This document shows, in pieces, positions 44,170 through 64,000 of a stretch of DNA of 64,000 nt. Source of the stretch: a virus; IMG/VR virus record IMGVR_UViG_3300044213_000060, positions 1-64,000 of that record; one strand, written 5' to 3'. The notes under the pieces are model-generated. The model was not told the origin of the DNA and did no database searches. It saw only the letters and a list, made by a program, of their open reading frames with translations. Made by a program: the position numbers and the translations under genes. Numbering within the stretch: the first letter of the stretch is position 1; each line of letters opens with the position of its first letter.

Positions 44170-44490
44170 ATGTCTAACTTAGAAAATCTAGTAAATCAAA
44201 CACGTTTGGCAACAGATTACGCCAAAAACAAAACTTTATTACGAGAAAAGATTCAAACGGATCTACATTTTGCCTACAACGGTGGATTGTTTCGAGCAGA
44301 TCCCGCACAATACACATTTGTAATATTGTGGCAAGGTGATTCGGATGCATTGTTTTTGGAAGATACTTATGGTAATCCTATAAAGATCGAACAAAAAGAA
44401 TTTGTCAAACTATCCACAGAACACTATCAACGAGTAATGAACCGTTGGCATCAAGAACATGCAGAACTCAAACGAATCCGTAAAGTCTAA
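44170..44490 (+). CDS. Hypothetical protein
   Basis: 106-aa first gene of the operon. Confidence 0.7.
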   Translation: MSNLENLVNQTRLATDYAKNKTLLREKIQTDLHFAYNGGLFRADPAQYTFVILWQGDSDALFLEDTYGNPIKIEQKEFVKLSTEHYQRVMNRWHQEHAELKRIRKV

Positions 44491-45271
44491 AGGTGTGTTA
44501 ATATTTGCATTTAATACTGCTGAAACCGATTATGTCGGTATTGCAGATCGTGCTGCTGCTCTTGCACAAAAAAATTTACAATTACCAGTAACATTAATCA
44601 CTGACACAGATAGCCAGCCTAAATTTGCATACGATAAAATTGTACGCATTACACAAGAAGACAGCAAAAATGTTAGACAAACAGTAGAAACAAATCAAAC
44701 AGTGACCTGGCGTAATCTTGGAAGATATCAAGCATATAATCTTAGTCCTTACGATCAAACTATATTAATTGACAGTGATTATTTTGTTCTTGACTCAAGT
44801 CTCGCAACATTATTTGATAAATCAGAATATCAAATAATGTATAATAATTATGGACTTAATGGGCACATCAATAATATTATGGGTCCAATGAGTTTGCAGT
44901 ATGTATGGGCAACTGTTATTGTATTTGATCGGTCTAATTTGTCTGAAGCGTTATTTGATCTTGCAGGAAAAATACAACGTAATTATGGGTATTATTGCAG
45001 TTTGTTTAATGTTCCTGCAACGAACTATAGAAATGATTATGCGTTTGCAATGGCGCACTATATCGTATCAAACGATCCTGGGCATTTTATACCTTACAGT
45101 ATGTTTACCGTTGACACAGCCATAGACTCTATTGAACTTGCTGAACGTATTACTATTAAAACTCCTAATACCGCACATATTGTTCCTGTGCAAAATTTAC
45201 ATATAATGAGTAAACAATTTTTGACCAGCAACAAATTTGACCGATTTTATCAGGCAGCAATAAATGTTTAA
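44459..45271 (+). CDS. GT-A fold glycosyltransferase-like protein
   Basis: LSPYDQTILIDSD (DxD) and YRNDYAF motifs. Confidence 0.65.
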   Translation: MQNSNESVKSKGVLIFAFNTAETDYVGIADRAAALAQKNLQLPVTLITDTDSQPKFAYDKIVRITQEDSKNVRQTVETNQTVTWRNLGRYQAYNLSPYDQTILIDSDYFVLDSSLATLFDKSEYQIMYNNYGLNGHINNIMGPMSLQYVWATVIVFDRSNLSEALFDLAGKIQRNYGYYCSLFNVPATNYRNDYAFAMAHYIVSNDPGHFIPYSMFTVDTAIDSIELAERITIKTPNTAHIVPVQNLHIMSKQFLTSNKFDRFYQAAINV

Positions 45272-46103
45272 TCATCAAGCACAACAGGGATTTTTAACAT
45301 TAGCCATTGGCGCAGATTATCTACGTATGGCTTATGCACAAGCATTGAGTGTCAAAACTGCAATGCCTGATGCACTATATGCAGTGGCAGTTGATGCAGA
45401 AACAAAACTATTGATTACAGATAAACACATGACAGTATTTGATTATGTAGTTGATGTTCCTGAATTTAACAATCCAATGCAAGCAGAGCCTGAGTTATTT
45501 TGGGTCACTCCGTTTAAAGAAACAATTAAGTTAGAAGCAGACTTGTTAATACCGCGCAACATCAACCATTGGTGGACGGCATTAAGGCACAGAGAGTTAG
45601 TTATTAGTACCAACTGCAGAGACTATCGCGGCAACATTGTTGTGGATACAACATATAGACGATTATGGGCAGATAATAATTTACCAAATGTCTATAATGG
45701 TCTAATGTATTTTAGATTTACTAGAGAAAATTTAGAATTCTTTATGTTAGCACGTGATATATTTGCTAACTGGGATGCCATTAAAGAAGAATTAAAAAAT
45801 TGTAGAGATGATGCGCCCGAAACAGATCAAGTATATGCATTGGCTGCTAGCATACACGGTGTTGAAAGATCTACTATGCCCAGTTTAGATTTTTTCACAA
45901 TGACCCACATGAAACCACACATACAAGGATGGCCGTATGACACAGTTTGGCCTACTGCGGTTATTACCGAAGTTTACGATTCAGTTATAAGAATTAATAA
46001 TGTAGAACAACTGTATCCGTTTCATTATCATGAGAAAGACTGGCTAACTGAAGATATAATAAATACATATGAATCAATTAGATCCCTTAGAAGAATTTCT
46101 TAA
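45264..46103 (+). CDS. GT-A fold glycosyltransferase-like protein (paralog of 44459)
   Basis: YLRMAYAQALS, TPFKETIKLEAD (ExD), TDQVYA and HYH motifs. Confidence 0.6.
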   Translation: MFNHQAQQGFLTLAIGADYLRMAYAQALSVKTAMPDALYAVAVDAETKLLITDKHMTVFDYVVDVPEFNNPMQAEPELFWVTPFKETIKLEADLLIPRNINHWWTALRHRELVISTNCRDYRGNIVVDTTYRRLWADNNLPNVYNGLMYFRFTRENLEFFMLARDIFANWDAIKEELKNCRDDAPETDQVYALAASIHGVERSTMPSLDFFTMTHMKPHIQGWPYDTVWPTAVITEVYDSVIRINNVEQLYPFHYHEKDWLTEDIINTYESIRSLRRIS

Positions 46104-46431
46104 AGCACTAGCATCATTGCCCGAACCAGTTGTGCCAGAACCAAAAGAGTATAGAATATACTACAATGAAACTGGTAGAATAACAATGTTGTCCATGACC
46201 AATCACCCCGAAGGTGATTATATTGTTGTAGATTTAGAAACTTTTGAAAACTATACTAGATACGCCGGAGTCAAGGATAAAAAACTCATACCGGTTGCAC
46301 AAAACAGTGGATATCAAGTACAATTGTCAAAAGGTTTATTGGGTTTTACAGTAGTAGCAGGACATGCTGGATTACTAATAGAAGACGAATCTTATCAAAA
46401 TACGGAGAACTATGGCTACACAAATCGTTGA
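46069..46431 (+). CDS. Hypothetical protein
   Basis: 120 aa, overlapping the upstream gene. Confidence 0.65.
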
Positions 46432-46994
46432 TGTTGCAACAATTTTCTACGTTCGTTGGACGCTTTAACTCCGGCGGCAATTTTGTCTTTTGTCTCTTGA
46501 GAATACACCCGCCGTTTATTGGATTCTGCTATTTCGGCTTTGGATTCTGGGGTATGTTGTGGACCAGCAACTTTGCCCTTCTTGTGAGAAGGTCTCCCTT
46601 TAAGTTTTTCGGACCGTTGTTTCTTTTCTTCCTCGGTCCATAGTCTTCTTTTCTTTTTATGTGTAAACGTTTTTCCTTGCATTTGCAATCCTTTAGCAAG
46701 GCGTTGACTTGTAGTCCACACCCTTCCGGATGTTCCGTCACCACCATCGGTTTGATTTCGGAGTATCCCAGTTCCCAAGTCTTTGCGTCCGTACCATTTT
46801 ATAAGTTGTCGCTCAATTGCAAGAGCACCAATTTCTGTTAAATTTTGTTCAATTATAATGATACGATTTAGTTCGCTTGGTATTCTGATATATTTGCGAT
46901 TGTCCGAAAATGCTCGCTTACCTGAGTCTTTTCCTATATAATAAGGGGTGCCATCTGTTCTTAGATAGGCATAGACATAAAAGTGTAAATACAT
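46416..46994 (-). mobile_element. Free-standing GIY-YIG homing endonuclease with NUMOD3-like C-terminus
   Basis: [38 protein letters not shown] and basic repeats [20 protein letters not shown]; antisense to the operon it interrupts. Confidence 0.85.
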
Positions 46995-46995
46995 T

Positions 46996-47066
46996 GCTGA
47001 TAGTTCCTTATAAACTGTTAGAGCAGGTGGATGCTTCCAACATCGCGATCTGCACTATTATTTATT
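46996..47066. promoter_or_regulatory. Late promoter (AATAAATA, minus strand, 47059-47066) and two-hairpin leader of the homing endonuclease
   Basis: Hairpins CTGATAGTT/AACTGTTAG (covering the SD AAGGA of the minus-strand gene) and GCAGGT-G-GATG/CATC-GCG-ATCTGC. Confidence 0.55.
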
Positions 47067-47074
47067 AAAAAAAA

Positions 47075-47980
47075 ATGAAAAATCCTGAAATAATCGATGT
47101 AGCTGATCTTGATACAATATATTTGACATATGATGAACCTCAAAAAGAAGAATTCTGGATTAAAATCCAAAATATGGTACCTTGGGCAAAGCGTGTTGAT
47201 GGAGTTAAGGGCAGCGATGCTGCCCATAAGGCCGCAGCCGATGCCAGTGAAACTGATCGTTTTGTGCTTATTGACGGAGATAATTTGCCCGACGCTGATT
47301 TCTTTAACCTGCAGTTACGTTTGGATAGTACCAATGCTGATTGCGTGTTTCGTTGGCGGGCTCGCAATAGTATAAACGGCCTAATGTATGGCAACGGCGG
47401 AATGAGTTGTTGGACCAAAGACTTTGTTTATAATATGAAAACACACGAAGCATCCGACGGTGCTGATGATACTGCAGTGGAGTTTTGTTTTGACCCCAAA
47501 TATTGGGCCATGCACGACTGCTACTCAACTACATACCCAGACGCAACCCCATTCCAAGCATGGCGTGCTGGATATCGTGAAGGTGTTAAGATGTGTTTAG
47601 ACCGTGGCACTAAACCTACTATTGCCGAATTTGAGCAAAGAGTAAACGGCCGGAACTACGACAACTTATGCATTTGGCAATCAGTTGGAGCAGACAACCC
47701 CAATGGTCTGTGGGCTATATATGGTGCACGACTAGGTACTATTATGACCATGAACGAAGAAACCTGGAACTATAGAGATGTGCAAGACTTTGATAAACTA
47801 AAAGACCTTTGGCAAACATTCGGCAAACTTGATCCGGCTAAAGAATTAGAAAAACTAACCAAGTCTTTAACTAATAGACTAGGATTGCCGGTTACATTAT
47901 TAAATGCCGAAGCAAGCCGGTTCTTCAAGCATCATTATCGTGCAGTATTTCGAAATCAAGGACCAATGGTACGTGAGTAA
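47075..47980 (+). CDS. Glycosyltransferase-like protein (GT-A, DGD motif)
   Basis: YDEP, RVDGVKGSDAAH, VLIDGDN, YGNGG and FQAWRAGYREGVK. Confidence 0.55.
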   Translation: MKNPEIIDVADLDTIYLTYDEPQKEEFWIKIQNMVPWAKRVDGVKGSDAAHKAAADASETDRFVLIDGDNLPDADFFNLQLRLDSTNADCVFRWRARNSINGLMYGNGGMSCWTKDFVYNMKTHEASDGADDTAVEFCFDPKYWAMHDCYSTTYPDATPFQAWRAGYREGVKMCLDRGTKPTIAEFEQRVNGRNYDNLCIWQSVGADNPNGLWAIYGARLGTIMTMNEETWNYRDVQDFDKLKDLWQTFGKLDPAKELEKLTKSLTNRLGLPVTLLNAEASRFFKHHYRAVFRNQGPMVRE

Positions 47981-48680
47981 TTTAACAGCAATTTCTTTTT
48001 ATCCCAGAGGCGGAGGAAATAGATACCTACGTTATATTAAGGGGGATGATTTTAGTTTACCAAATATGTCATATGATCAATTTATTAAAGATCAAATTTT
48101 AGAACATAGATATTTATTGTCAAGTCCGCCAAAAACCAATAATGATTTTGTACTAACGCATTGTGCTAATGTTAAAAGAATAAACGAAGTTCTTGCCCCG
48201 ACAAACATTATTTTTATAAAAACTGACTTTAAAAACAGTTTGCAAAGAGAATGGATGCTACATGGAAAATTTAGATATTCATCTACTAGAATTAAAAAAA
48301 CTTATGATAAATTATTGTTAGAAACATATAACGATATCCGTGCTATGCATTGGCCAATAATTGATACGATAGATGAATTTTATTGTTTAAATGAAAACAT
48401 AAAAAATGAAGTTATTACACAAATTAAAAATTTAACAATAAATGAAACGCTAAACTCGGCGTGGGCTACTATTTGCTGGCATCACCAATACTACGAACGC
48501 TACACAGCTGATTGTAGAGTAGATGTTAATGTTGATAATGATAATAATGAATTTGCTAATATGATGCGTGAAGAGCTAGCAAGATATCCAAGTGAATTAT
48601 TTGATTTTTGCTGGAAAATTTATACACAATATAGACCTAACGCTAAAATAACAGACTTATACGAAAATGACAAAAAGTGA
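47904..48680 (+). CDS. Hypothetical protein (AT-rich)
   Basis: FYPRGGGN and YNDIRAMHWP motifs; the true start is probably the GTG near 47974. Confidence 0.55.
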   Translation: MPKQAGSSSIIIVQYFEIKDQWYVSNLTAISFYPRGGGNRYLRYIKGDDFSLPNMSYDQFIKDQILEHRYLLSSPPKTNNDFVLTHCANVKRINEVLAPTNIIFIKTDFKNSLQREWMLHGKFRYSSTRIKKTYDKLLLETYNDIRAMHWPIIDTIDEFYCLNENIKNEVITQIKNLTINETLNSAWATICWHHQYYERYTADCRVDVNVDNDNNEFANMMREELARYPSELFDFCWKIYTQYRPNAKITDLYENDKK

Positions 48681-50052
48681 TTTTATGGCTAGTGCCGAGT
48701 GGATGAAAGATAATCTCGGCGAAGGCTTGTGTTTAGCTAAATGGAAGCAAGTTAGCCTGCATTTACCTACAGGCTTAAACAACAGTTGCTATCATCCTCC
48801 ACTGCATGCTATTGACGCCGATGTATTAAAAGACAATCCGGGAGCATTACATAATACAGCACACAAAAAAGCTCAACGTAAAATAATGCTTCGTCATGAA
48901 CGTCCTGGTGAATGTCAATATTGCTGGAACATGGAAGACTTGGGTAAACTAAGTGATCGTCATTATAGATCTGGAGAACGTTGGGCCGCAGAGGAATATG
49001 ATACAATTGTAAATAGTACAGGAGACGAAAACGATGTTATCCCTTCATACGTTGAGGTTAATTTTAACCACGCTTGTAATTTGGCTTGCAGCTATTGCAG
49101 TCCTCAGTTTAGCAGTACGTGGCAAACAGAAATCGACCGTTATGGTGGCTATCCTACTAGTACTATTCACAACGACCCTAGTCATTTCACTGGGCGCAAT
49201 CGTCCTATTCCCGCCTCCACTGATAACCCCTATGTAACGGCATTTTGGGAATGGTGGCCCACTTTATATCCTAAATTAAAACACTTTCGTATGACTGGCG
49301 GTGAGCCATTAATGGACAAGAATACATACCGAGTATTTGATTATGTGTTGGCTATACCTAACCCAGAATTGCATTTAAATGTAACAAGTAATTTTAGTGT
49401 CGAAGATGCATTGTTTGAAAAATATATAAATTATGTAAAACAGTTATGCAGTACCAATATTGAACATTTCATGCAGTATGTAAGTTTAGATTCTGGAAAA
49501 TACACTCACGCCGAATATATTAGACACGGCTTAAACTTTCATCGTATGCAAAATAATGTGCATAGATTCCTTGGTGAGATTCCATATCGTAATAGTCTTA
49601 CATTTATTATTACAATGAATAATTTAAGTGTATTGGGCTTACAACAACAACTGGAATGGATATTGGATTTACGTAAATCCTATAGCTCAACTTATCAACG
49701 TGTATGGTTTGACACTCCAGTATTGCGTCGACCAGAATGGCAGAGCCTGCAACTGTTACCACCTGTGTATGCAGGAGTATTAGAACGTACTGCAGACTGG
49801 ATGGAAGCAAACTTAGAAACCCCAGATAAACCATTTTGTGGATTTAAAGATTATGAAGTTCAGCGTTTACGCAGAGACATAGCATGGATGCGAGAAGGTA
49901 GCAATCTAGACCCTGACTATGTTAAACTACACAAAGGGAACTTTTATCGATTCTTTAACGAACACGATAAACGTAGAAAAACAAATTTTTTATCAACTTT
50001 CCCGCAGATGAAAGAATTCTGGAAAGAATGTGAATACTATGCCAAAAATTAA
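48667..50052 (+). CDS. Radical SAM protein 1 (N-terminal Twitch/SPASM-like domain)
   Basis: CNLACSYC and TGGEP; N-terminal C...CYH...CQYC. Confidence 0.9.
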   Translation: MTKSDFMASAEWMKDNLGEGLCLAKWKQVSLHLPTGLNNSCYHPPLHAIDADVLKDNPGALHNTAHKKAQRKIMLRHERPGECQYCWNMEDLGKLSDRHYRSGERWAAEEYDTIVNSTGDENDVIPSYVEVNFNHACNLACSYCSPQFSSTWQTEIDRYGGYPTSTIHNDPSHFTGRNRPIPASTDNPYVTAFWEWWPTLYPKLKHFRMTGGEPLMDKNTYRVFDYVLAIPNPELHLNVTSNFSVEDALFEKYINYVKQLCSTNIEHFMQYVSLDSGKYTHAEYIRHGLNFHRMQNNVHRFLGEIPYRNSLTFIITMNNLSVLGLQQQLEWILDLRKSYSSTYQRVWFDTPVLRRPEWQSLQLLPPVYAGVLERTADWMEANLETPDKPFCGFKDYEVQRLRRDIAWMREGSNLDPDYVKLHKGNFYRFFNEHDKRRKTNFLSTFPQMKEFWKECEYYAKN

Positions 50053-51199
50053 TTTAGTAGAAAATAAGACATTTTGTATGCTACCTTTTATTCATACTAT
50101 GTTAGATGAACACGATAATTTAAGACTTTGTTGTTTTTCTAATAAAGTAAAATCTTTCCCTGTTGATTTTAATTTTAAAAGCGACAAAATTCTTAATGAT
50201 GTTAGATCAAAGATGCTAGTAGGCGATAAAGTATCTTATTGTGAAACATGCTATAGTATAGAGGACTCCGGAGGCGAAAGTTTTCGTAGTATAAATTCTC
50301 TGGAATGGATGGAAAAATTAGGTATATCAGACACTGATGATTTAGAACCAGAGTTAATTTATTACGACATACGTAATGATAATTTATGTAATTTAGCATG
50401 TAGAATTTGCCACCCGGCGGCAAGTAGTCAGTTAGAAAAAGAATATAAAAAACTCAATTGGGTAATATGGCCGCGTTCACCAAAATTAAAGATAACAGAT
50501 ATTGTAAATTATTCTACAGTTAAAAAGATGTATATAGCCGGGGGCGAACCTACAATTATGCCATCATTTAGAGAATTTTTAGTTAAAGCAATCGAAAATA
50601 ATAGAACTGATATCGAGATAAGAATGTTAACCAATGCAACAAATCTAAACAAAGATATCTTGTCATTATTGTCTAATTTTAATCATCTAGAAGTATCTAT
50701 TAGTATTGATGGGTTTGATGACGTAAACACTTATATAAGATGGCCAAGTGATTGGAATTCTATAGTAAACAATATAGAAAAAATACTAAAAATAACTAAT
50801 TCTGTGTCTATCGGAATCGATGTAAATATTTGGAATATATGCAGTTTATATAAATTAATTGATTTTTTGGAGAATAAATTCCCGGGGGTAATTATTAATT
50901 TAACTGAAGGATGGCCAACAGAAGGTATAAACATTAGACCATTTAATTTTCCAAATAAAGAATTGGCGGTCGAAAGATTAAATTTAATTAAACATTCTAT
51001 TACATACCAAACTAAAACTTTGTTTAAAAATAAAATTGATTATTTTATAACTCGAATTCAAACAGAACCTATAGATTATGATGCACTAAAAAAGTTTTTT
51101 ACCTATAATGATGCACTTGATGCTAGTAGAGAAGTTAAATTAAAAGATTATATACCGGAATTAGAAGCATGCCGAGAATTAATAACGAAACAGATTTAG
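50030..51199 (+). CDS. Radical SAM protein 2
   Basis: CNLACRIC and AGGEP; N-terminal FCMLPF...CC...CETC. Confidence 0.9.
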   Translation: MNTMPKINLVENKTFCMLPFIHTMLDEHDNLRLCCFSNKVKSFPVDFNFKSDKILNDVRSKMLVGDKVSYCETCYSIEDSGGESFRSINSLEWMEKLGISDTDDLEPELIYYDIRNDNLCNLACRICHPAASSQLEKEYKKLNWVIWPRSPKLKITDIVNYSTVKKMYIAGGEPTIMPSFREFLVKAIENNRTDIEIRMLTNATNLNKDILSLLSNFNHLEVSISIDGFDDVNTYIRWPSDWNSIVNNIEKILKITNSVSIGIDVNIWNICSLYKLIDFLENKFPGVIINLTEGWPTEGINIRPFNFPNKELAVERLNLIKHSITYQTKTLFKNKIDYFITRIQTEPIDYDALKKFFTYNDALDASREVKLKDYIPELEACRELITKQI

Positions 51200-52518
51200 A
51201 ATACAAACACAGAGTGATTGATGTTAAGTCAACATCATTCTGTGGAGCAAAATGGTACAACGCCACTATCTGGTTGGGGTCAGGCATGACCACCAGTTGC
51301 CATCACCCATTGCCGCATAAAGTGGAGGTTGGTGATGTAGTACGAAATCCCAAAGCATTGCACAACACGCAACAAAAAAAGATGGAGCGTGAACAAATGC
51401 AAAAAGGTGAACGACCAAGTGGTTGTGAATACTGCTGGAAGATAGAAGATATCGGCCGCGATAATATTAGTGACCGTGTTTATAAGACAGTTATCTATTC
51501 AGATGAAGATTTAGCTTATGCATATCGTACTCCTGCAAGCCGAGATATTAATTTACAGACTCTTGAGATCGCCTTTGATCGTACTTGCCAGCTTGCTTGC
51601 AGTTATTGCAACCCAGCTTTCAGTTCTACCTGGGTCCGTGATATTGATCGTAATGGGCCTTATACCGATCTTGTCAGTGATGGCCGTAACCATTTTACGC
51701 ATAATCACAGATCATCGCAACTATACCGATTTGGCGAAGAAAATCCATATGTCACAGCCTTCCACAAATGGTGGGAATCAGATTTACATCGAACACTAAA
51801 AGAACTACGTATTACAGGTGGGGAACCGCTTATGTCAGGCGAAACGTGGCGACTTATTGATTGGTTTAAAAGTAACAAAGGTAAGTCAAAGACTAGGTTA
51901 GCCATTAACAGTAATTTAGGCCCCGATGTAGATATAGATCGTTTGTTAGATTCAATTGACGGGGTCGAAGTAGACTTATATACTAGTAATGAGTCTATGA
52001 GTTTGCAAGCAGAATATATTCGCGATGGTCTTGTGTTTGATGACTGGGCAAACAATGTAGAACGATTGCTTGATAGCGGTAAGTTTCGTGGACTACATGT
52101 TATGTGTACAATAAATGCATTGTGTTTAGACAGTATTGATAGTTTTCTAGAATGCGTTTTACAATGGAAAACCGAATATGGTCAAGATGCTATTAATTTT
52201 ACATTAAATATATTAAGGTTCCCAAGTTTTCAATCGCCATTGGTGTTTACTGATGATTTACGTTCTTATTACAAAAACAAGTTAGAAACTTGGTTTAAGA
52301 ATAATAAGCATTCAGAGTTTTTACATGAAATGGAACAAAATCAAGTTCAACGATTAATTGATTATCTTGATGTTGTTAAAACTCCGCATGCTGATGCCGC
52401 AGAAAGATCTATGCTAGAGAAAGATTTCAAACAGTTTTATACTCAATACGATTTAAGAAGAAATAAAAATTTTGTTGACGCATTTCCAAATATAGCAGAC
52501 TGGTACAATTCGATATGA
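51169..52518 (+). CDS. Radical SAM protein 3
   Basis: CQLACSYC and TGGEP; N-terminal FCGAKW...CHH...CEYC. Confidence 0.9.
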   Translation: MPRINNETDLEYKHRVIDVKSTSFCGAKWYNATIWLGSGMTTSCHHPLPHKVEVGDVVRNPKALHNTQQKKMEREQMQKGERPSGCEYCWKIEDIGRDNISDRVYKTVIYSDEDLAYAYRTPASRDINLQTLEIAFDRTCQLACSYCNPAFSSTWVRDIDRNGPYTDLVSDGRNHFTHNHRSSQLYRFGEENPYVTAFHKWWESDLHRTLKELRITGGEPLMSGETWRLIDWFKSNKGKSKTRLAINSNLGPDVDIDRLLDSIDGVEVDLYTSNESMSLQAEYIRDGLVFDDWANNVERLLDSGKFRGLHVMCTINALCLDSIDSFLECVLQWKTEYGQDAINFTLNILRFPSFQSPLVFTDDLRSYYKNKLETWFKNNKHSEFLHEMEQNQVQRLIDYLDVVKTPHADAAERSMLEKDFKQFYTQYDLRRNKNFVDAFPNIADWYNSI

Positions 52519-55174: not shown

Positions 55175-56375
55175 TACTATTTGTATGTTGCCTTGGATTA
55201 GCATAGAAACTAGTCCTGTTGGAACTGCACGCCCATGTTGTATGGCACACGAAGAAATCACCGACGAACACGGGGAAAAATACGATTTAAATCAAACTGA
55301 TTTAACCACGATATACCGTAGTGAATATATGCAAAATTTGCGCAGGCAATTTCGCAATGGCCTAAAACCTGAAACATGCTCGCGATGCTGGGATGAAGAA
55401 GACGCCGGCAGAACCAGTAAACGATTGCACACACAAGATCGATTGAAGGAACTATTTGCACAAGTTGATTGGACCAATGATAACCCTGAACAACTGTGGT
55501 TTATTGATTTAAAGTTAGGCAATATCTGTAATTTAAAATGTCGTATCTGCGGTTCGTGGTCTAGCAGTAAATGGGCCGAAGAAGAACTAGCATACATGCC
55601 CGAATTAGAAGATAAAAAATCTCATCTTGCATACAAACTGCTACGTGCCGGAGCATGGCCTCGTAAAACAGAAACATTTTGGGACGATTTAAAATCACTG
55701 CTACCTAACATCAAATACTTTGAGTTTACTGGCGGCGAACCCTGGATGATTCAAGAACATTTTGACCTTCTACAATATGCAGTGGATACGGGGCATAGTC
55801 ATCATATTGATATTCACTATAATACTAATGGTTCCCAGTGGCCTAAGAATCCGCTATTATGGAAAGAATTTGGCCGGGTGGATATTGCATTCAGTATTGA
55901 CAATGTGGGCGATCGATTTGAGTATGAACGCTATGGTGCCAAGTGGGATGAAGCAAATAAAATTATTGATGCCACACATGTTTTAAAAGATACAAGTTTA
56001 CCAAATATTACCACACAACTTTGCTTTACGATCAACGTACAAAATGTTTACTACTTAGATGAACTTCTTGCGTGGGCAGATACAAAAGGATTTGGAGATA
56101 TCTATTTTAACATGATGCATGGCCCTGCACACATGAGTGTTCAATACATGCCCTTGGCTGCTAAAGAATTAGTATTAAACAAATTAAAAACAACATCTTG
56201 GACAACCAATAATTATCAACAAGAAATTAACAATATTATTAATTTTATTGAATTAGGTCCTGGCAGCGACGGAAAAGAATTTTTAATTAAAATGAAAATA
56301 ACGGATCAATATCGCCGACAAAACTTTATGGATACACATCCAGAAATAGCTGCAGCAATGGGTTATGGACGCTGA
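55161..56375 (+). CDS. Radical SAM protein 6
   Basis: CNLKCRIC and TGGEP; N-terminal ICMLPW...PCC...CSRC. Confidence 0.9.
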   Translation: MNLPNTICMLPWISIETSPVGTARPCCMAHEEITDEHGEKYDLNQTDLTTIYRSEYMQNLRRQFRNGLKPETCSRCWDEEDAGRTSKRLHTQDRLKELFAQVDWTNDNPEQLWFIDLKLGNICNLKCRICGSWSSSKWAEEELAYMPELEDKKSHLAYKLLRAGAWPRKTETFWDDLKSLLPNIKYFEFTGGEPWMIQEHFDLLQYAVDTGHSHHIDIHYNTNGSQWPKNPLLWKEFGRVDIAFSIDNVGDRFEYERYGAKWDEANKIIDATHVLKDTSLPNITTQLCFTINVQNVYYLDELLAWADTKGFGDIYFNMMHGPAHMSVQYMPLAAKELVLNKLKTTSWTTNNYQQEINNIINFIELGPGSDGKEFLIKMKITDQYRRQNFMDTHPEIAAAMGYGR

Positions 56376-57375
56376 TTTAATATTTCACCGGCAACATAGA
56401 AATTTGCCTTCGCCAAAAACAGTTACTAATACCTGTGACTGGCCATGGCATCAATTAAACATTGACAGCCAAGGGCGATTGTTTGTCTGCGGGTGTGATG
56501 CATGGGTACCGTTTAGTGCAGGTACTGTAAATGATTTTGGTAGTTTTGCACAGGTGTTTGCAAGTCCGGTTGCACAGCAAGTACAAAATGCTATTACCGC
56601 AGGTACATTTGATTACTGCGATACCCGCCATTGCGGAGTTATGCAAAACAATCAAACAACACAATATGATTATTATTTGCATATAGGTATAGATGACAGT
56701 TGTAATTTGTTATGTCCAAGCTGTCGAAAAGATAAAATATTTAGAAGTGATGCTGAATGGATTGATCCTAGACTACAATGGATAGAACAAATAAATCAAT
56801 GGATACAACAAGTTCCTGATAAGACGGTACATATTATGATAGGTGCAAATGGTGATCCATTTGCAAGTTTAATTTATAGACACTTGATTAAACGTGTTGA
56901 TTTCGCTCAAAATGTCAGTTTTAGTTTTCGCACCAATGGATTGTTAATGCAAAAACATCTGGCAGAATTTACCATACTGCCCAGGATACGCAATTTAGAT
57001 ATTAGCATAGATGCCGCAACTGCTAAAACCTATGCTATTACACGTCGTGGCGGTGATTGGGACATACTAATAGAAAATTTAAAATTTGCTCAGAGTATAA
57101 AAGAACAGTACAATATTAATCTTGTTGGCAATTTCGTAGTACAACGTGCAAACTTTAGAGAAGTTCCTGAATTTGCACAATTGTGTTGGCAGTACGAGTT
57201 AGTGCCTAGTTATCAAATATTACAAGATTGGGGTACATACAAAAACTTTAAAGAAGAATGTGTACATTTCACTGATAGCCTACACTATAATGAATTCTGC
57301 CAAATATTTAAAGACGCCAGCTGGCAAACAGACAAGATTTATTTAAACGCGGTCCATGAGTATATTAAAACCTGA
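56365..57375 (+). CDS. Radical SAM protein 7 (divergent)
   Basis: CNLLCPSC, GDPF and ISIDA; N-terminal CDWPW...CGC...CDTRHC. Confidence 0.85.
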   Translation: MDADLIFHRQHRNLPSPKTVTNTCDWPWHQLNIDSQGRLFVCGCDAWVPFSAGTVNDFGSFAQVFASPVAQQVQNAITAGTFDYCDTRHCGVMQNNQTTQYDYYLHIGIDDSCNLLCPSCRKDKIFRSDAEWIDPRLQWIEQINQWIQQVPDKTVHIMIGANGDPFASLIYRHLIKRVDFAQNVSFSFRTNGLLMQKHLAEFTILPRIRNLDISIDAATAKTYAITRRGGDWDILIENLKFAQSIKEQYNINLVGNFVVQRANFREVPEFAQLCWQYELVPSYQILQDWGTYKNFKEECVHFTDSLHYNEFCQIFKDASWQTDKIYLNAVHEYIKT

Positions 57376-58660
57376 TACACTATGTATGGCTCCGTGGACT
57401 CACACATATCTAAGTCCACAAACAGAAAGACGCATGTGCTGTGCGTCGCGAGAGCCTGCGCAGAATTTTCAGCAGTATATTGATACTGGTAGTGGTACTG
57501 GTCAGTATATACCGATCACTTTGGATGAACATTGGAATGGGGAGCATCTAAGATCAGTGCGCCTGCGCATGTTGCGCGGGGAAACCCTCCCAGAGTGTGA
57601 AGTATGCAATGACAAGCTATTGAACACTGATGTTTACCGTAGTTATTTTAATCAACTGTTTGGGCATAAGTACGATAGTGTAATTGAAACTACAGATAGC
57701 ACGGGTTATACAACAATGAAACCAGTGTCGTGGGATTATCGTTTTAGTAATCTCTGTAATTTCAAATGCCGTATGTGCGGAGACATGTTAAGCAGTGCTT
57801 GGGAGTCAGAGCAACGCCAACACAACATGGTCGATTATGCTAATCCAAAAAATAATTGGATGCGACCTGAAGTCAAGCAACAAATTGAACAGTTTCAATC
57901 TACTCAAGTAGAGCAAGAATTTGCCGATGCAGTTGAAGAACACCGTGTCGAAGAGGTCTACTGGGTAGGAGGAGAACCGTTGATGTACGAACAACACTGG
58001 AAGTACATGCAACGTATTGTTGAATTAGGAGATGGACCAAATGTTTACGCACGTTACAACACCAACCTTTCAAGGGTTCGTTACAAAGGTGTTAATTTAT
58101 ACAGCGATATTCTTGGGCATTTGCGCGATTGGCAAATTTGTGCGTCAATTGATGGCACCGGCCAAATCGGAGAATACATCCGAACAGGCCTTGACTATGA
58201 TCAATGGCTTAGAAACTTCCGTGAAGGAGTTGAGATCGCAACTAACCGACGTCAAATGCGAATTGACTTCACACTCACATTGCCAGGTATGTTCGAAACC
58301 CATAACATTATGCGATTGTCGCGAGAGCTAGATGTAGATATACTAGCTAAAGTAATTTTTAGTTTTAGCCCGGACATAGTTATGTCACCTTTAGCCCTAC
58401 CTAGAGAACTTTTAGAACCCTGGATAGACGAAACAATTAGCAAATTAGCAAGTGGTAGCAACCCGTTAAAGGATATACTTGTCCAACTAAAAACTAGACC
58501 TACATTTGCGGAACAATGGCCCAATGAATATGCCAACGCCATTGCTCGAGGCAAGGCTCGTGTGTTAAAATTAGAAAGTATACGCACACAGCCTATTACA
58601 ATGGCCGAAATATTAAAGGAAAGACCTGATGTCTACAACTGGTGGCAATCAATTGCTTGA
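57356..58660 (+). CDS. Radical SAM protein 8
   Basis: CNFKCRMC and VGGEP; N-terminal LCMAPW...MCC...CEVC. Confidence 0.9.
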   Translation: MSILKPDTLCMAPWTHTYLSPQTERRMCCASREPAQNFQQYIDTGSGTGQYIPITLDEHWNGEHLRSVRLRMLRGETLPECEVCNDKLLNTDVYRSYFNQLFGHKYDSVIETTDSTGYTTMKPVSWDYRFSNLCNFKCRMCGDMLSSAWESEQRQHNMVDYANPKNNWMRPEVKQQIEQFQSTQVEQEFADAVEEHRVEEVYWVGGEPLMYEQHWKYMQRIVELGDGPNVYARYNTNLSRVRYKGVNLYSDILGHLRDWQICASIDGTGQIGEYIRTGLDYDQWLRNFREGVEIATNRRQMRIDFTLTLPGMFETHNIMRLSRELDVDILAKVIFSFSPDIVMSPLALPRELLEPWIDETISKLASGSNPLKDILVQLKTRPTFAEQWPNEYANAIARGKARVLKLESIRTQPITMAEILKERPDVYNWWQSIA

Positions 58661-59738
58661 TCAATTTGAAATAGTTTTACAGGATAATAATGATCCACTA
58701 ACTGTTTATGTTGATGTGTATGACAATTCACTTGGCCGTAAATGGCTATCTGCACTTAATGATTTAATTGCAAACAATTATCACCTTGAAAAGAATTACT
58801 GTTTTTTTGGATTTGTCAATAGCAAGCGCAATGGTCAGTATATGCTTAATCAAGTAAATCAGTCAATCTCTGCAATTAATAATGCTAATTTAGGATATCA
58901 CATAGATGATTATTTTTCCATGGATAATTGTATCAGTGATAAATCCGAAGATGGTAGAGCATTTGGCAGAAACATTGTGCACGATAAATTTAATCATCTG
59001 CATAGATATTTTGAAGACCTTCAAGGAGTTAGCGGACAAATGTCGCCGTTCTATCAACAAGCCAATGACGCAATACGTTGGCATATACGACAATTAAATT
59101 TATTGTGTCACGAATTTGAATCTTGGGCACTTAGTTATCGTAAACAAATAGAAGCACCAGAATGGCAACGGCCCAGCCAATTGATGTGTTGGTTGCATGC
59201 CCCTCGGTTCACGCTAGATGAAGAAGATTATGAATTATTTGGTGTTGACACTATAAATCGCAGTCTCGGGGGAGTCTATGTTGGAGTTAATAAAGCGGTT
59301 GGCAAACATCATTGGGAAGTATTTAATGACGAAGGTAGAGATAGTAGGATAGATGAATTAACAACAACAACACTAAGAAGTCAAACCGAAGCTGCCGGAG
59401 ATTTTGATATAGAATGGGCAAACGATCCTGGAAAATATCATTGGCAACAGCGCAGACTACAAGAATTCAGAGATTGGCTTACTGCAAACAACTTTGACCC
59501 TGATGATAAAAGTTTAACCATAGGACATCCAAAAGTTGGACAAGTTGATTTAGTTCGTAGTTTTGGTACAGAAAATTATGAAATAATCTGGCGCTTATTG
59601 TTGGATAGATTAAATGTGCAGAGTATATCTACATCTACTGCACAAGCTGTATACAACTATAATTGGTCCAACGCTGATTATATGCAACAACAAATTGAAA
59701 GTTTAAAACCAGGATATGATCTTAGTAGCCGGGGGTGA
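58629..59738 (+). CDS. Hypothetical protein
   Basis: 369 aa with NHLHRYFE and LNLLCHEFE His/Glu motifs (possible metal binding). Confidence 0.7.
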   Translation: MSTTGGNQLLDQFEIVLQDNNDPLTVYVDVYDNSLGRKWLSALNDLIANNYHLEKNYCFFGFVNSKRNGQYMLNQVNQSISAINNANLGYHIDDYFSMDNCISDKSEDGRAFGRNIVHDKFNHLHRYFEDLQGVSGQMSPFYQQANDAIRWHIRQLNLLCHEFESWALSYRKQIEAPEWQRPSQLMCWLHAPRFTLDEEDYELFGVDTINRSLGGVYVGVNKAVGKHHWEVFNDEGRDSRIDELTTTTLRSQTEAAGDFDIEWANDPGKYHWQQRRLQEFRDWLTANNFDPDDKSLTIGHPKVGQVDLVRSFGTENYEIIWRLLLDRLNVQSISTSTAQAVYNYNWSNADYMQQQIESLKPGYDLSSRG

Positions 59739-60450
59739 TAGTTTTATTTTTGGAAATGAATTAACAGATTGGCAATTAAATAAATCAACGCCAAGTAAAT
59801 TTACATTTCCTGCGCTAATTGCAGATTATCTAAGGTTAGATTATTCATGTTGTGCAATACCAGGAAATGCCAATGATGCTATTGCAAGAATGACCATAGA
59901 TAGATGCGAAATGCTGTTAAACGAAGGCAAACAAGTTGCAGTGATAGTCGCTTGGACTTTCCCGGAAAGATTTGAATTTCCCTTTGAATTTGAAATTAAC
60001 AGCCCTATTAGCCCATGGTCAAGCATTACTGTAAATGATCTAATCAATAAACCTGAAACAAGAAGTTTTGCACGAGAGTTTTATAAAAATATTAATTCTG
60101 GTTGGTTTGCAGAATACAATACAGTAAAAAACATAATTATGCTAGAACAATATTTAAAATCGAAAAATATCAATTATGTTTTTACTGTTGCAGACAACAT
60201 ACTTTTAAAAAATCGAAACGATCAAGCATTAAAACCCTATTGGGATTTAATAGATTTTGATTCTTGGTTTCTATTTCCTGCGGCAACAGAGCCACATAAT
60301 ACTGTAACACCAAGAGGTTTTTACCAATGGGCTCAAGAGAATAAATATCCAGTAGGCCCTGATCAACATCCACTTGAGCAAGCACATCAAATAGCCGCCA
60401 CACTAATCCAGGAGAAATTTAATGAAATGGTTAAAAAATCTGTACAATAA
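59716..60450 (+). CDS. SGNH/GDSL-hydrolase-like protein
   Basis: N-terminal GDSF, G.AN, WT..ERFE and C-terminal HPLEQAH. Confidence 0.65.
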   Translation: MILVAGGDSFIFGNELTDWQLNKSTPSKFTFPALIADYLRLDYSCCAIPGNANDAIARMTIDRCEMLLNEGKQVAVIVAWTFPERFEFPFEFEINSPISPWSSITVNDLINKPETRSFAREFYKNINSGWFAEYNTVKNIIMLEQYLKSKNINYVFTVADNILLKNRNDQALKPYWDLIDFDSWFLFPAATEPHNTVTPRGFYQWAQENKYPVGPDQHPLEQAHQIAATLIQEKFNEMVKKSVQ

Positions 60451-60523
60451 AATTGTACTGGAAATTCGCTATCGTAAAAAACTACGAGAACTACGCAAAA
60501 GAGATCCGTTTATTTACAAATGA
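60422..60523 (+). CDS. 33-aa basic peptide (not in ORF track)
   Basis: MKWLKNLYNKIVLEIRYRKKLRELRKRDPFIYK; GGAG SD upstream; its stop overlaps the next start (ATGA). Confidence 0.7.
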   Translation: MKWLKNLYNKIVLEIRYRKKLRELRKRDPFIYK

Positions 60524-61182
60524 TTCAAAGTATTTTAACAATCGGTGATAGCTTTACCTACGGTGAAGAATTAGATAATCGGGAACATGCCTGGCCTTAT
60601 TATCTTGCACGAGGACTAAAAGCCGATGTAGTAAATTTAGGTCAGCCCAGTGCCGGCAACACCGGAATGGTTCGCAAGGCCATGAGTTATAGTGTAACCG
60701 ATGCTCCTGTGGACCTAGTTATAGTAGCATGGTCGAGTGCAGGACGCATGGAGTTTGCTGACGAAAATGGCACCTATGATATATGGCCCGGGTATCTTGG
60801 CGGTAAGTTTACAAGAGACGATCAACTCTGGAGATTTGAAATATTAGAATATATCAACAAATATCATAGTCCAGAATATTTGTTCCAACAATATCTCGTA
60901 AACATAATATCATTGCAGAGTTTTTTCAAAGCTAACAATCAACGATATCTAATGTTAGATATTGTTGGGCGAGACTACTATAAAAATACATATACAACAC
61001 GCATGCCTCAATTGGCAGGAATGGTTGACCCTACATATTTTATTGGGTGGCCCAATGATGGCATGGCAGAATGGACACAAGGATGTAGACGTGGCTCAGG
61101 TGGGCATTTTCTAGAAGATGGTCACAAGAAAGTGACTGCAAAAATTTATGAACATATTCGGAATCTCGGCTGGATTTCATGA
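60520..61182 (+). CDS. SGNH/GDSL-hydrolase-like protein
   Basis: GDSFTYG, NLGQPSAGN, WS...RME and GHFLEDGH. Confidence 0.7.
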   Translation: MIQSILTIGDSFTYGEELDNREHAWPYYLARGLKADVVNLGQPSAGNTGMVRKAMSYSVTDAPVDLVIVAWSSAGRMEFADENGTYDIWPGYLGGKFTRDDQLWRFEILEYINKYHSPEYLFQQYLVNIISLQSFFKANNQRYLMLDIVGRDYYKNTYTTRMPQLAGMVDPTYFIGWPNDGMAEWTQGCRRGSGGHFLEDGHKKVTAKIYEHIRNLGWIS

Positions 61183-62662
61183 TGCAGCCATAACAGTATT
61201 GCAGGACAACAAAATTGTCTTTGCAGGGCACGCTGAACGATACAGCAAAAGAAAAAACGATGCTAATCTCAATGACGATCTTGTTGCAGATGCTTTATCT
61301 TATGGCAATCCAGATCAAATAGTGTACTACGAACGTCCTTGGATTAAGAAATTACAACAACTATATTCGGGACAGTACAATGAAGCTGCAAATTTTGATA
61401 ATTTTACTATTGGTCAGCATATTCGCAAATATATACATGTTCCTGTTCATCAGGAGCGACTACTATCTTGCCCTAGACGAAATATGTCCCATCATTTATC
61501 ACACGCTGCCGCGGGATTCCAAACAAGTCCTTACCAAAAAGCCACAGTTGTGGTTATAGATGCTATCGGTGAATTAGATACCGTTAGTATTTACGGTGCA
61601 GAGTATGTTAATGGGCGGGCTCAGTATCGAAAACTATGGGGACAACGTTATCCACATAGCATAGGATTATTTTATAGTGCAATGACACAAGCAGTTGGAT
61701 TAAAGCCTAACGAAGAAGAATATATAATGATGGGCATGAGTGCATATGGTACTGATGCTGTAATCACAGATGGGCTATCTACGGTTATAAAAAATAAATT
61801 TGTTGCAGACGAATATGCAATTGAATTTAAGGAAAACTTACATGCAGGTGCTGATTTGCATCCATTTGATTATTTAGAAAAAGAAGATATTGCTTATGGT
61901 GCACAACGATTAGCTGAACGTTTGATATACAATGTTATGCATCGTGCTAAGATGTTCGACTTTAGTTCAAACTTGGTTTATATGGGCGGTGTGGCACTTA
62001 ACTGTTTAGCAAATAGAAACTTAGGAGATTATTTTGATAATATATGGATTATGCCTAATCCTGGTGATGCTGGCAGTAGCCTGGGCGCTGCCGCCCTTGC
62101 TTATGGCGGTCCTCTTGTGTGGCGCGATGCTTACCTTGGGACTAATATTGCCGGTGACTATCCTGTTAATGGATTGTTGGATACTTTACTCACTGAAAAA
62201 ATTGTCGGAGTTGCCTCGGGACGAGCAGAATTCGGGCCCAGGGCACTAGGCAATCGTAGTTTGTTAGCGGACCCAAGAGGGCCAGATATAAAGGATCGTG
62301 TAAATGAAATTAAACGAAGACAAAAATTTCGACCTTTTGCCCCAGTTATTCTGGAAGAGATGGTTGATGAGTACTTTGATGTTCCTCGTGGTTGGAGTGA
62401 CAGCAGGTATATGCAGCTCGTCGGTAAGTGTAGGCGTCCTGACTTATTTCCTGCTATCGTTCACGTGGATGGGACTAGTCGTATTCAGACCGTTCCACAA
62501 GATGGATCAGGAATAAGACAACTGTTAGAAAAATGGTATGTAATGACAGATTGCCCAATGTTGTTAAATACTAGTTTGAACATACGCGGAGAACCTATGG
62601 TTAATGACCGCGCAGATGCTGATAGATTTGAAAAAATGTATAACGTAAAGGTATGTAGTTAA
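61148..62662 (+). CDS. Carbamoyltransferase (NodU/CmcH family)
   Basis: HDAA, ERYS, HHLSHAAA, GGVALNC, PGDAG, EFGPRALGNRS, FRPFAP, HVDGTSRIQTV and LNTSLN. Confidence 0.95.
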   Translation: MNIFGISAGFHDAAITVLQDNKIVFAGHAERYSKRKNDANLNDDLVADALSYGNPDQIVYYERPWIKKLQQLYSGQYNEAANFDNFTIGQHIRKYIHVPVHQERLLSCPRRNMSHHLSHAAAGFQTSPYQKATVVVIDAIGELDTVSIYGAEYVNGRAQYRKLWGQRYPHSIGLFYSAMTQAVGLKPNEEEYIMMGMSAYGTDAVITDGLSTVIKNKFVADEYAIEFKENLHAGADLHPFDYLEKEDIAYGAQRLAERLIYNVMHRAKMFDFSSNLVYMGGVALNCLANRNLGDYFDNIWIMPNPGDAGSSLGAAALAYGGPLVWRDAYLGTNIAGDYPVNGLLDTLLTEKIVGVASGRAEFGPRALGNRSLLADPRGPDIKDRVNEIKRRQKFRPFAPVILEEMVDEYFDVPRGWSDSRYMQLVGKCRRPDLFPAIVHVDGTSRIQTVPQDGSGIRQLLEKWYVMTDCPMLLNTSLNIRGEPMVNDRADADRFEKMYNVKVCS

Positions 62663-62983
62663 ATGACTCACTTAGTCACAGATAATTGTATTAAATGTAA
62701 ACACACAGATTGTGTAGATGTGTGCCCGGTAGATTGTTTTTATGAAGGACCTAATTTTTTAGCAATCAACCCTGATGAATGTATTGATTGTGCAGTATGT
62801 ATTCCCGAATGTCCGGTTAATGCAATTAAAGCCGAAGAAGATGTACCGGATCGAGACATATGGTTTGATATTAACAAAAGATTAAGTGCAAAATGGCCCA
62901 ATATCAAACGCAGTAAAGAATCATTGCCGGATGCCGACGAATGGAACGGTCGGCCCAATAAGTTGCCGTTATTAGAAGAATGA
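62663..62983 (+). CDS. fdxA: 7Fe ferredoxin (FdxA-type)
   Basis: [17 protein letters not shown] and [12 protein letters not shown]. Confidence 0.93.
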
Positions 62984-63723
62984 CGTTGGAAAATAATTTA
63001 TATTATACCAACAAAGAAAAAAATATATTTTTTGTTGGAGATAGTTTTTGCGCAAGCTATAATAGAGAATTATTTCATAAATTAGGATCTCGTAATTCTC
63101 AATACGGCAAAAATAATTCTTACATAGACTTAGTAGCAAGGCATTTTAACTGTATTTTACAACCTCATGGTTATGGTGGAAAAAGTTGGTGGTGGTCAAG
63201 AGTTAGATTTTATAGAGATTTAGAGTCCATAGATCTAAATTCAATTTTTGCTATAGTATTTTGTCATACTGATCACAAAAGAATAAACAATTCTTGGAAT
63301 GATAATAATGAACTACAACATCCAGATCTATCGTCAGAAGCCAAAATTTTTTACAAATATTATTACGACAACGAGTTCAACAAATGGGCATGCGAAAATT
63401 GGTTTAAAGAAATCAACGAAAAATTTGCAGATGTAAAGACCGTGCATTTTAATTGTTTTCGGGATACAGTTGAATTGTCGCGTCAATTAAACGGTGTAGT
63501 AATTAACACTCCTCTTATAGATTTAAGTCTTAAAGAGTTTCCGACATCTACTAATATACGGAAAATGATACTAAATGACAAAAGAACTAATCATTTTAGT
63601 TCGAGAAATAATCAAGTGTTAGCCAATTATATTATTAGACATTTAGAAAACTATACACCTGGTCAATATGAATTGAATTTGTCAGATTTTGAACTTCGAG
63701 GATTATCTAATACATGGGAATAA
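62980..63723 (+). CDS. SGNH-like protein (AT-rich)
   Basis: FVGDSFC, G.GG.S and C-terminal NHFS..NN. Confidence 0.55.
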
Positions 63724-63727
63724 TAAA

Positions 63728-64000
63728 ATGACACGAAAAATATTAGTAATGGGTTTACCGGGTTCAGGTAAAACAACATTCAGTCAAAACTTAGTTAAAC
63801 GACTTATGCTGTCGCATAGTGTAAGTTGGTATAATGCCGACAGTGTGCGTGAACAGTTTGACGACTGGGATTTTAGTCCAGAAGGTCGTGCACGACAAGT
63901 TCAACGCATGATTGATTTATCAAACAATTCAGGCAGTGATTTTGCTGTCTGCGACTTTGTTTGCCCTACAGATGAATTGCGCCAAGAGTTCGATGCTGAC
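63728..64000 (+). CDS. Adenylyl-sulfate-kinase-like P-loop protein (partial; not in ORF track)
   Basis: Hand translation MTRKILVMGLPGSGKTT...NADSVR...DWDFSPEGRARQ...DFVCP, a CysC-like pattern. Confidence 0.65.
   Translation, partial: MTRKILVMGLPGSGKTTFSQNLVKRLMLSHSVSWYNADSVREQFDDWDFSPEGRARQVQRMIDLSNNSGSDFAVCDFVCPTDELRQEFDAD

Follow-up and report, generated by a model that had tools for sequence, protein, structure and literature searches.

The window analysed here is a 64,000-nt stretch of viral DNA, positions 1 to 64,000 of the IMG/VR virus record IMGVR_UViG_3300044213_000060, which is 92.9 kb long and rated 26% complete. Positions 44170-64000 of the window hold an operon of 21 plus-strand genes that overlap or abut, plus one 33-aa open reading frame (ORF), and among these genes are eight consecutive ones for radical S-adenosylmethionine (SAM) proteins, which we call R1 to R8. 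An original prediction, made from the DNA letters, had read the region as a nearly completely translationally coupled phage pathway that builds and modifies a glycan. Such coupling is indeed what we found: with the micro-ORF counted, 20 of the 21 plus-strand ORF junctions overlap or abut (-77 to 0 nt), and the sole gap, of 643 nt, houses a homing-endonuclease-like gene on the minus strand. The radical SAM array consists of the following genes.

48667..50052, plus strand: R1, N-twitch radical SAM, core (NF033640 295 bits; ortholog clade with support 100)
50030..51199, plus strand: R2, N-twitch radical SAM, accessory (NF033640 253 bits; no ortholog in 40 loci)
51169..52518, plus strand: R3, N-twitch radical SAM, core (NF033640 278 bits; 50% identical to RsoM2USA_202)
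52515..53855, plus strand: R4, N-twitch radical SAM, accessory (NF033640 275 bits; sister to the R3 clade, support 96)
53837..55174, plus strand: R5, N-twitch radical SAM, core, of the type also present in bacteria (NF033640 392 bits)
55161..56375, plus strand: R6, N-twitch radical SAM, core (NF033640 347 bits)
56365..57375, plus strand: R7, accessory and divergent radical SAM, Cys-rich domain at the N-terminus (Radical_SAM 34.1 bits, SPASM 19.7 bits)
57356..58660, plus strand: R8, N-twitch radical SAM, core (NF033640 294 bits)

The CxxxCxxC motif occurs in all eight of these consecutive, overlapping ORFs (48667-58660) and is invariant in their alignment, and the predicted row of eight motif-bearing ORFs therefore stands. 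Seven of them score 253-392 bits over the full model length of NF033640 (N_Twi_rSAM; cut-off 170 bits), while R7, a divergent member of the radical SAM superfamily, falls under the cut-off at 47.6 bits and does not belong to NF033640 by score. Against Pfam Radical_SAM (PF04055; gathering cut-off 29.5 bits), R2 (55.3 bits), R5 (35.0), R6 (33.6) and R7 (34.1) lie above the threshold; R1, R3, R4 and R8 (25.0-28.1 bits) lie slightly under it, yet exceed the NF033640 cut-off. A Pfam SPASM match is found N-terminal to the radical SAM core. In R5 numbering, C42, C61 and C105 are invariant in 8/8 paralogs, and the fourth ligand position, C102, is a cysteine in all except R7 (7/8). These four N-terminal cysteines are predicted to serve an auxiliary cluster, and CxxxCxxC the SAM cluster; the order of a four-Cys twitch domain followed by the radical SAM core is common to NF033640 and the operon proteins. 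The paralogs share only 16-28% identity, and their nearest ESM Atlas clusters are 93-100% viral. A sequence/profile search of the PDB with R5 gave nothing meaningful, and a tblastn search of plasmids with R6 gave no match. The radical SAM proteins form one specialised family and not a set of unrelated housekeeping enzymes.

Radical SAM enzymes that act on sugars or aminocyclitols include BtrN and, more loosely, DesII, AprD4 and NeoN. BtrN-like enzymes combine a radical SAM core with one auxiliary 4Fe-4S (twitch) cluster, as the operon proteins are predicted to do, and the operon resembles aminoglycoside pathways in its sugar-tailoring context with aminotransferase and carbamoyltransferase relatives. 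However, the twitch domain is N-terminal in the operon enzymes and C-terminal in the BtrN type, and no sequence match to any solved structure was obtained, which leaves the BtrN-type label of the original prediction as an analogy only.

A protein-anchored scan yielded 80 viral loci. Presence was counted in the 40 loci of the operon's own clade (clade 1) that span the complete +/-10 kb, with orthologs defined by at least 50% identity. R1, R3, R5, R6 and R8 are present in the same order and with the same flanking genes in 40/40 of these full loci, confirming by synteny that this five-paralog core is co-conserved. Two proteins described below, the putative transferase GT3 and a 369-aa core protein, were each found in 40 loci, the putative transferases GT1 and GT2 in 39, a carbamoyltransferase in 38 and a kinase-like gene in 34. 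Since the clade-1 relatives hold 5-7 radical SAM genes, the eight of this operon are the maximum seen. R2, R4, R7, a ferredoxin and the third of three GDSF-motif proteins (S3) are accessory here; in relatives, genes of the R2 type, the ferredoxin, S3 and a 258-aa gene occur seldom or not at all in this position. A quick maximum-likelihood tree placed every core type in a clade of its own (support 100) on a long branch, suggesting that the five core paralogs diverged anciently. Genes from a second viral lineage fell into one clade with R1 and R3, R5 grouped with most of the sampled bacterial homologs (Shimodaira-Hasegawa-like approximate likelihood ratio test, SH-aLRT, 86), and R2 and R7 lay on long branches with unsure placement.

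The second viral clade (L074-L082) carries 5-8 tandem copies of the radical SAM gene, and its arrays are accompanied by a pair of GT7 genes and by genes for a UDP-sugar dehydrogenase, a methyltransferase, a DegT aminotransferase, a cytidylyltransferase-like protein and DUF6071. Many viral contigs hold arrays of a similar kind, and the one described here is therefore unusual but not unique; the original prediction had called eight paralogs in one viral operon very unusual, and eight does top the range of 5-7 in relatives. Among cultured phages, Vibrio phage K566 (255 kb; L083, record 161548-165950) has three consecutive genes annotated as 'radical SAM domain-containing protein', with 22% identity to R5. 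Five loci filed under bacterial metagenome-assembled genomes (MAGs; L084-L088) carry the phage clade's fibre-to-carbamoyltransferase synteny; these are Legionellales SP228, a Porticoccaceae MAG, Flavobacterium bin08 and two contigs (148 and 183 kb) of Haliscomenobacter EUL_031. They are phage DNA binned with bacteria, and could be either contamination or a weak hint at hosts.

The operon belongs to a clade of uncultured jumbo myophages that are distant kin of the Rak2 and Atu_ph07 groups. Upstream of it lie genes for a portal and for the hub and wedge of a baseplate, an ORF of 4244 aa and tail-fibre-like genes; the wedge is 34-37% identical to those of jumbo myophages such as Atu_ph07, Rak2 and K64-1, and related contigs are as long as 354-374 kb. 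A megablast search of cultured phages with the 20-kb operon gave no match. In T4-like pelagimyophages and cyanomyophages, glycosyltransferase and radical SAM cassettes lie by the tail-fibre genes in a host recognition cluster (Zaragoza-Solas et al. 2020, PMC7029224), and 12 radical SAM genes have been noted in one T4-like environmental genome (Nishimura et al. 2017, PMC5332604). Both reports mention the radical SAM genes in passing, without analysis, and describe a hypervariable island. The host recognition cluster and the operon are alike in placing glycosyltransferase and radical SAM genes by fibre genes in uncultured aquatic myophages; they differ in that a jumbo myophage with a fixed five-paralog core is concerned here. 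Literature searches on 'N-terminal SPASM', on radical SAM with carbamoyltransferase and PhyH, and on radical SAM with jumbo phage and glycosyltransferase returned nothing relevant.

Two further genes of the operon proved to be linked to each other.

60422..60523, plus strand: 33-aa basic micro-protein with the C-terminus RKRDPFIYK, between S1 and S2 and overlapping both
61148..62662, plus strand: NodU/CmcH-type (Nol-like) carbamoyltransferase with both Pfam domains

The carbamoyltransferase had been correctly predicted: it scores 136.8 bits for Carbam_trans_N (cut-off 24) and 163.1 bits for Carbam_trans_C (cut-off 27), and the histidines of its HHLSH motif (H115, H116 and H119) are invariant in 15 carbamoyltransferase orthologs. 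Homologs occur in 136 phage records. The Nol-like (NodU/CmcH/TobZ family) enzymes of cultured cyanophages and pelagiphages share both Pfam domains with it, whereas the operon's gene is coupled to the micro-protein and the radical SAM array. We know of no test of the function of a phage carbamoyltransferase.

The gene of the 33-aa peptide, missed in the original prediction, is strongly conserved and was found at 66 R5-anchored loci, two of them of the second clade. Its codon-position entropies (0.52, 0.34 and 1.02) and an excess of synonymous over non-synonymous differences in the last ten codons (4331 versus 338) point to coding selection. An independent scan with a DNA pattern found at least 120 further viral loci with the peptide. 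In 79/88 of these loci the carbamoyltransferase starts at most 1.7 kb downstream of the peptide, and in 27/39 peptide loci with at least 5 kb of upstream sequence the carbamoyltransferase is present and no N-twitch radical SAM gene occurs in that stretch. From these distributions the peptide belongs with the carbamoyltransferase and not with the radical SAM proteins, and we regard it as the probable partner of that enzyme; the pair is far more widespread than the radical SAM array. A structure prediction of the peptide-carbamoyltransferase complex scored 0.53, with the best of three controls at 0.00, which lends weak support; its runs agreed in at least 94% of contacts, with a predicted local distance difference test (pLDDT) value of at least 74 for the partner. 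The mark used for such predictions was reached by 58/80 solved complexes and 2/110 mismatched pairs, and only 7/80 solved complexes and both passing mismatches reached it with a score of 0.60 or less.

A small version of the system occurs in the cultured Ralstonia phage RsoM2USA, which has five annotated genes (three SGNH-like, one radical SAM and a carbamoyltransferase) and an unannotated peptide ORF. They run in the order SGNH-like, R3-type radical SAM (50% identity), SGNH-like, peptide, SGNH-like, carbamoyltransferase. The last is the closest cultured relative of the operon's enzyme (46.6% identity), and every annotated gene is labelled hypothetical. The RsoM2USA micro-ORF (record ~125891-125998, minus strand; L283 11041-11148) ends in KQDPFIYK and lies between RsoM2USA_201 and _200, with one SGNH-like gene (_200, ~850 nt) separating it from the carbamoyltransferase gene _199 downstream. 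This phage offers an experimental entry point.

Around the radical SAM array lie putative transferases, SGNH-like proteins and other soluble proteins; a segment scan found no strong hydrophobic segment in any operon protein.

44459..45271, plus strand: GT1, 270 aa, putative nucleotide-sugar transferase with a DxD (DSD) motif
45264..46103, plus strand: GT2, 279 aa, GT1 paralog in which E-x-D replaces DxD (phrog_1903, unknown function)
47075..47980, plus strand: GT3, 301 aa, GT-A-like fold with an invariant DGD (D67-G-D69)
58629..59738, plus strand: 369-aa core protein, modelled as a cyclophilin-like beta-barrel with an inserted helical bundle
59716..60450, plus strand: S1, GDSF protein, SGNH-like S2 paralog (hhalign 99.8% versus S2)
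60520..61182, plus strand: S2, DUF6071/SGNH-like protein (DUF6071 38.5 bits, cut-off 27)
62663..62983, plus strand: FdxA-type ferredoxin, accessory (DUF3470 59.8 bits and Fer4 33.4 bits; at this site in 0/40 relatives)
62980..63723, plus strand: S3, GDSF-motif protein, accessory (in 4/40 loci)
63689..64000, plus strand, continuing to genome 64348: P-loop kinase-like protein with a C-terminal DUF2061

GT1 and GT2 are related to each other (hhalign probability 97%). GT1 belongs to a large, unnamed family with 1009 cluster representatives, in 40 members of which D105 and D107 are invariant, and neither 40 diverse members nor a deeper family profile produced a Pfam or PDB match. GT3 is the best-conserved gene outside the radical SAM array. 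Its AlphaFold2 (AF2) model has medium confidence (pLDDT 68.6), and over the first ~150 residues it resembles both GT-A glycosyltransferases and nucleotidyltransferases of the IspD type: the top Foldseek matches are GT-A enzymes (best E 4e-3), while by VIA Z scores of 7-9 (root-mean-square deviation 3.4-4.0 over ~125 residues) GT-A enzymes are tied with IspD-type nucleotidyltransferases. A sequence/profile search of the PDB with GT3 gave nothing meaningful. Of the three genes predicted to be GT-A-like, GT3 thus gained support at the level of the fold, and GT1 and GT2 stayed at the level of a motif. The 369-aa protein was modelled at pLDDT 81 and a predicted template modelling score (pTM) of 0.81. 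A Foldseek-independent search matched the model to cyclophilins (VIA Z 8-10, ~140 residues aligned); Foldseek found no PDB match for the model, and a sequence/profile search of the PDB likewise gave nothing meaningful.

The three predicted GDS(F) proteins all have the motif. S1 and S2 are homologous, and S2, which passes DUF6071, scores 27.4 bits on Lipase_GDSL_2, below the cut-off of 32.9. S3 was considered as an S2 homologue and set aside: the hhalign value of 12.6% is not significant, and the GDSF motif is all that they have in common. The predicted FdxA was borne out by its Fer4 and DUF3470 matches and is likely an electron donor. The kinase-like protein, predicted to be CysC-like, keeps a marginal match to Pfam APS_kinase (25.4 bits, cut-off 21.1) over the P-loop half only. 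On NCBIfam apsK (TIGR00455) it reaches 22.8 bits against a cut-off of 138.7, and its PDB matches are equally good for PSTK. We therefore rejected it as a CysC equivalog, its similarity to APS kinase and PSTK being weak and equal. The original prediction had also invoked decoration by sulfotransferases; a search of the operon's genes detected neither a sulfotransferase nor a sulfurylase.

The 5' end of the operon and the genes that belong to no family complete the locus.

44114..44152, plus strand: sigma-70-type promoter (TTGACA-17-TATAAT with TG) and overlapping hairpin (14-bp stem, then a T-run)
44170..44490, plus strand: first gene, 106 aa, no Pfam or PHROG match (in 34/40 full loci)
46069..46431, plus strand: 120-aa conserved protein of no family (in 38/40 loci)
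46416..46994, minus strand: homing-endonuclease-like gene (phrog_15526, phrog_314)
47904..48680, plus strand: 258-aa accessory protein of no family (in 1/40 loci)

The homing-endonuclease-like gene between the 120-aa gene and GT3 is an intruder outside the pathway, and among the relatives L020 alone has it in this position. A stretch of 72 nt separates the last fibre-like gene from the operon and contains a 12/12 consensus promoter with an extended -10, overlapped by the terminator-like hairpin. In 35/43 distinct relatives, a promoter that matches at 10/12 positions or better stands upstream of the first gene's start codon, 18-31 nt away in nearly all, and an inverted repeat was seen by eye, uncounted, around the -10 box in most of the printed upstream sequences of relatives, although these differ in sequence. 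From this arrangement we infer that the fibre transcript would end at the hairpin and that a sigma-70-type polymerase would read the operon separately. Co-transcription with the tail-fibre genes was considered and is unlikely, as the hairpin and the operon's own promoter lie between them. The predicted position directly after the tail-fibre genes is correct as far as adjacency goes, with the hairpin and promoter separating the two, and therefore this adjacency speaks neither for co-transcription nor for a target on the virion.

Bacterial relatives provide a context for the radical SAM proteins. The scan of bacterial genomes used a 13-sequence alignment, the eight-paralog alignment being too diverse, and returned 79 loci in bacterial assemblies. 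Five are misbinned phage contigs of the operon's clade. Most of the remainder are R5-like genes in single copy, from Bacteroidota, Bdellovibrionota, Elusimicrobiota, Myxococcota and further groups; in bacteria NF033640 occurs as one copy at most sampled loci, as opposed to the five to eight deeply diverged tandem paralogs of the phage operons. At least 10-12 of the 46 bacterial loci of 12 kb or more have a glycan cluster beside the R5-like gene, with a carbamoyltransferase, GDSL, UbiA-like, GT4, NAD-epimerase, UDP-glucose/GDP-mannose dehydrogenase and GT2-family genes and an ABC-2 transporter. In Henriciella, UbiA, GT4 and GDSL are fused as one protein. The clusters of Bacteroidota and Henriciella (L097, L137, L111 and L148) share with the operon an R5-like type (32-46% identity), a carbamoyltransferase, SGNH/GDSL proteins and glycosyltransferases. 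They differ in having one radical SAM gene, membrane enzymes, an exporter and several PhyH oxygenases, whereas the phage operon has many radical SAM genes and the 33-aa peptide but lacks genes for membrane proteins or export. At L148 1-10000 (a Henriciella pelagia MAG), L104, L111 and L137, as many as eight PhyH-type dioxygenase paralogs stand in tandem beside the R5-like gene; by analogy, this may be what corresponds, in an oxygen-dependent form, to the row of radical SAM genes in the phage. In the Elusimicrobia MAG MJ-2014_bin-0981 (L110, L114, L118, L119, L123, L124, L127, L129 and L145), many short contigs each carry 2-4 tandem N-twitch radical SAM genes, which are either a bacterial expansion or more mis-binned viral DNA.

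Because sugar enzymes recur as neighbours in bacteria and in the second viral clade, a carbohydrate substrate is the best reading, and the operon probably encodes a self-contained pathway in the cytoplasm by which a carbohydrate-containing molecule is built or edited. In such a pathway the transferases would supply a sugar scaffold from nucleoside diphosphate (NDP)-sugars. Each radical SAM protein would use its 5'-deoxyadenosyl radical to abstract hydrogen from a different sugar C-H, leading to epimerisation, dehydrogenation, deoxygenation or a C-C link, with the auxiliary cluster handling the electron and FdxA supplying electrons. The attachment or removal of O-acyl, O-carbamoyl and phosphate groups would fall to the SGNH-like proteins, the carbamoyltransferase and the kinase. 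The same phage also encodes MetK (SAM synthetase), AhcY (S-adenosylhomocysteine hydrolase), a phosphoribosyltransferase and a PNP_UDP_1 nucleosidase-like protein (L002 6345-9157, minus strand; window 6569-7611, plus strand). These could recycle SAM by-products, and MetK, AhcY and the pair of nucleosidase-like protein and phosphoribosyltransferase would keep SAM turning over during the pathway. A sugar 4,6-dehydratase/epimerase and a DegT aminotransferase encoded elsewhere in this genome also favour the carbohydrate reading. The glycan pathway of the original prediction is thus partly supported, through the sugar-nucleotide and glycan neighbours. Two acceptors seem possible to about the same tentative degree: virion fibre proteins, favoured by the neighbouring fibre genes together with an all-soluble set of enzymes, and a host envelope glycan or its precursors, favoured by the bacterial context of exported polysaccharides and by the sigma-70-type promoter. 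A free sugar-derived molecule is a less likely product.

Several points weigh against a carbohydrate pathway. The functional reading is guilt by association from gene context. A clear glycan cluster is present at only ~10-12 of the 46 bacterial loci, the others being without annotation, and no sugar-activating enzyme, flippase, polymerase or lipid-carrier enzyme was found inside the operon. GT1 and GT2 are putative glycosyltransferases by motif only, and the fold match of the GT3 model is middling (Z 7-9) and common to nucleotidyltransferases. Literature searches on NF033640 found no characterised member, and we know of none with an assigned substrate. Moreover, twitch and SPASM radical SAM enzymes often act on peptides.

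A viral natural-product pathway is an unlikely alternative. Here the soluble enzymes would make a free, aminoglycoside-like pseudo-oligosaccharide or C-H-edited sugar metabolite, each radical SAM paralog would carry out a different radical step, and the carbamoyltransferase would use the 33-aa protein as an obligatory subunit or carbamoyl carrier, the micro-protein perhaps serving it as HypE serves HypF.

We judge it quite unlikely that the array matures a peptide or protein in the manner of ribosomally synthesised peptides with post-translational modifications (RiPPs), with the twitch radical SAM proteins cross-linking, epimerising or otherwise modifying a peptide or virion protein and the other enzymes decorating the product, as in mycofactocin glycosylation. 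The SPASM match in the N-terminal domain would fit such a role, as would weak NCBIfam matches to peptide maturases such as mycofactocin, SkfB, PapB and ScmE, the adjoining tail-fibre genes, and the presence inside the operon of a conserved 33-aa peptide with a Tyr-Lys tail under apparent coding selection. However, this peptide tracks the carbamoyltransferase (79/88 loci) and not the radical SAM proteins (none in 27/39), and we rejected it as a radical SAM substrate from this distribution among loci. No matching peptide was found at the four checked bacterial carbamoyltransferase loci with an R5-like radical SAM gene, the recurrent neighbours are sugar enzymes, and Pfam detected no RiPP recognition element (RRE)-like leader-binding domain.

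Hypermodification of DNA or nucleotides, by which a modified or sugar-decorated base would counter host restriction, is improbable. Phage base-hypermodification pathways do employ glycosyltransferases, P-loop kinases and sometimes radical SAM enzymes, all operon proteins are soluble, and there are weak NCBIfam matches to MoaA, QueE, NrdG and viperin. Against this, the clusters that hold the bacterial homologs are for exported polysaccharides and include ABC-2 transporters, no domain for DNA binding or base flipping was found, and no hydroxymethylase gene is adjacent, the thymidylate synthase-family gene lying ~10 kb off. That the region is no single pathway but a variable island of unrelated accessory genes behind the tail fibres is very improbable: R2, R4, R7, the ferredoxin, S3 and the 258-aa gene do differ among relatives, a homing endonuclease has inserted and the host recognition clusters of pelagimyophages are described as hypervariable (PMC7029224), yet the core order is identical in 40/40 loci, genes overlap by 4-77 nt and partners of the same families accompany the radical SAM gene again in bacteria and the second viral clade.

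Radical SAM enzymes carry out chemistry beyond the reach of ordinary sugar-tailoring enzymes, and the 5-8 different paralogs fixed in a single operon suggest a carbohydrate that is edited to an unusual extent. Among the 79 loci sampled, Bacteroidota and other bacteria commonly have an R5-like gene, and identifying its substrate would annotate a large family at once. Knowledge of the substrate and acceptor would also tell whether giant aquatic phages put decorations on their own virions, alter the surface of the host or produce a metabolite.

Further genes lie downstream of the operon. About 11 kb away, at genome 74648-76664, a sugar 4,6-dehydratase/epimerase gene and a DegT/DnrJ/EryC1 aminotransferase gene adjoin a 1404-aa protein encoded on the minus strand, and the thymidylate-synthase-family gene stands directly before this pair. 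Nearer by, at genome 66985-69744, a MoxR-like AAA ATPase gene lies ~400 nt 5' of a DUF2201 metallopeptidase/VWA-like gene, with a 91-aa ORF between the two.

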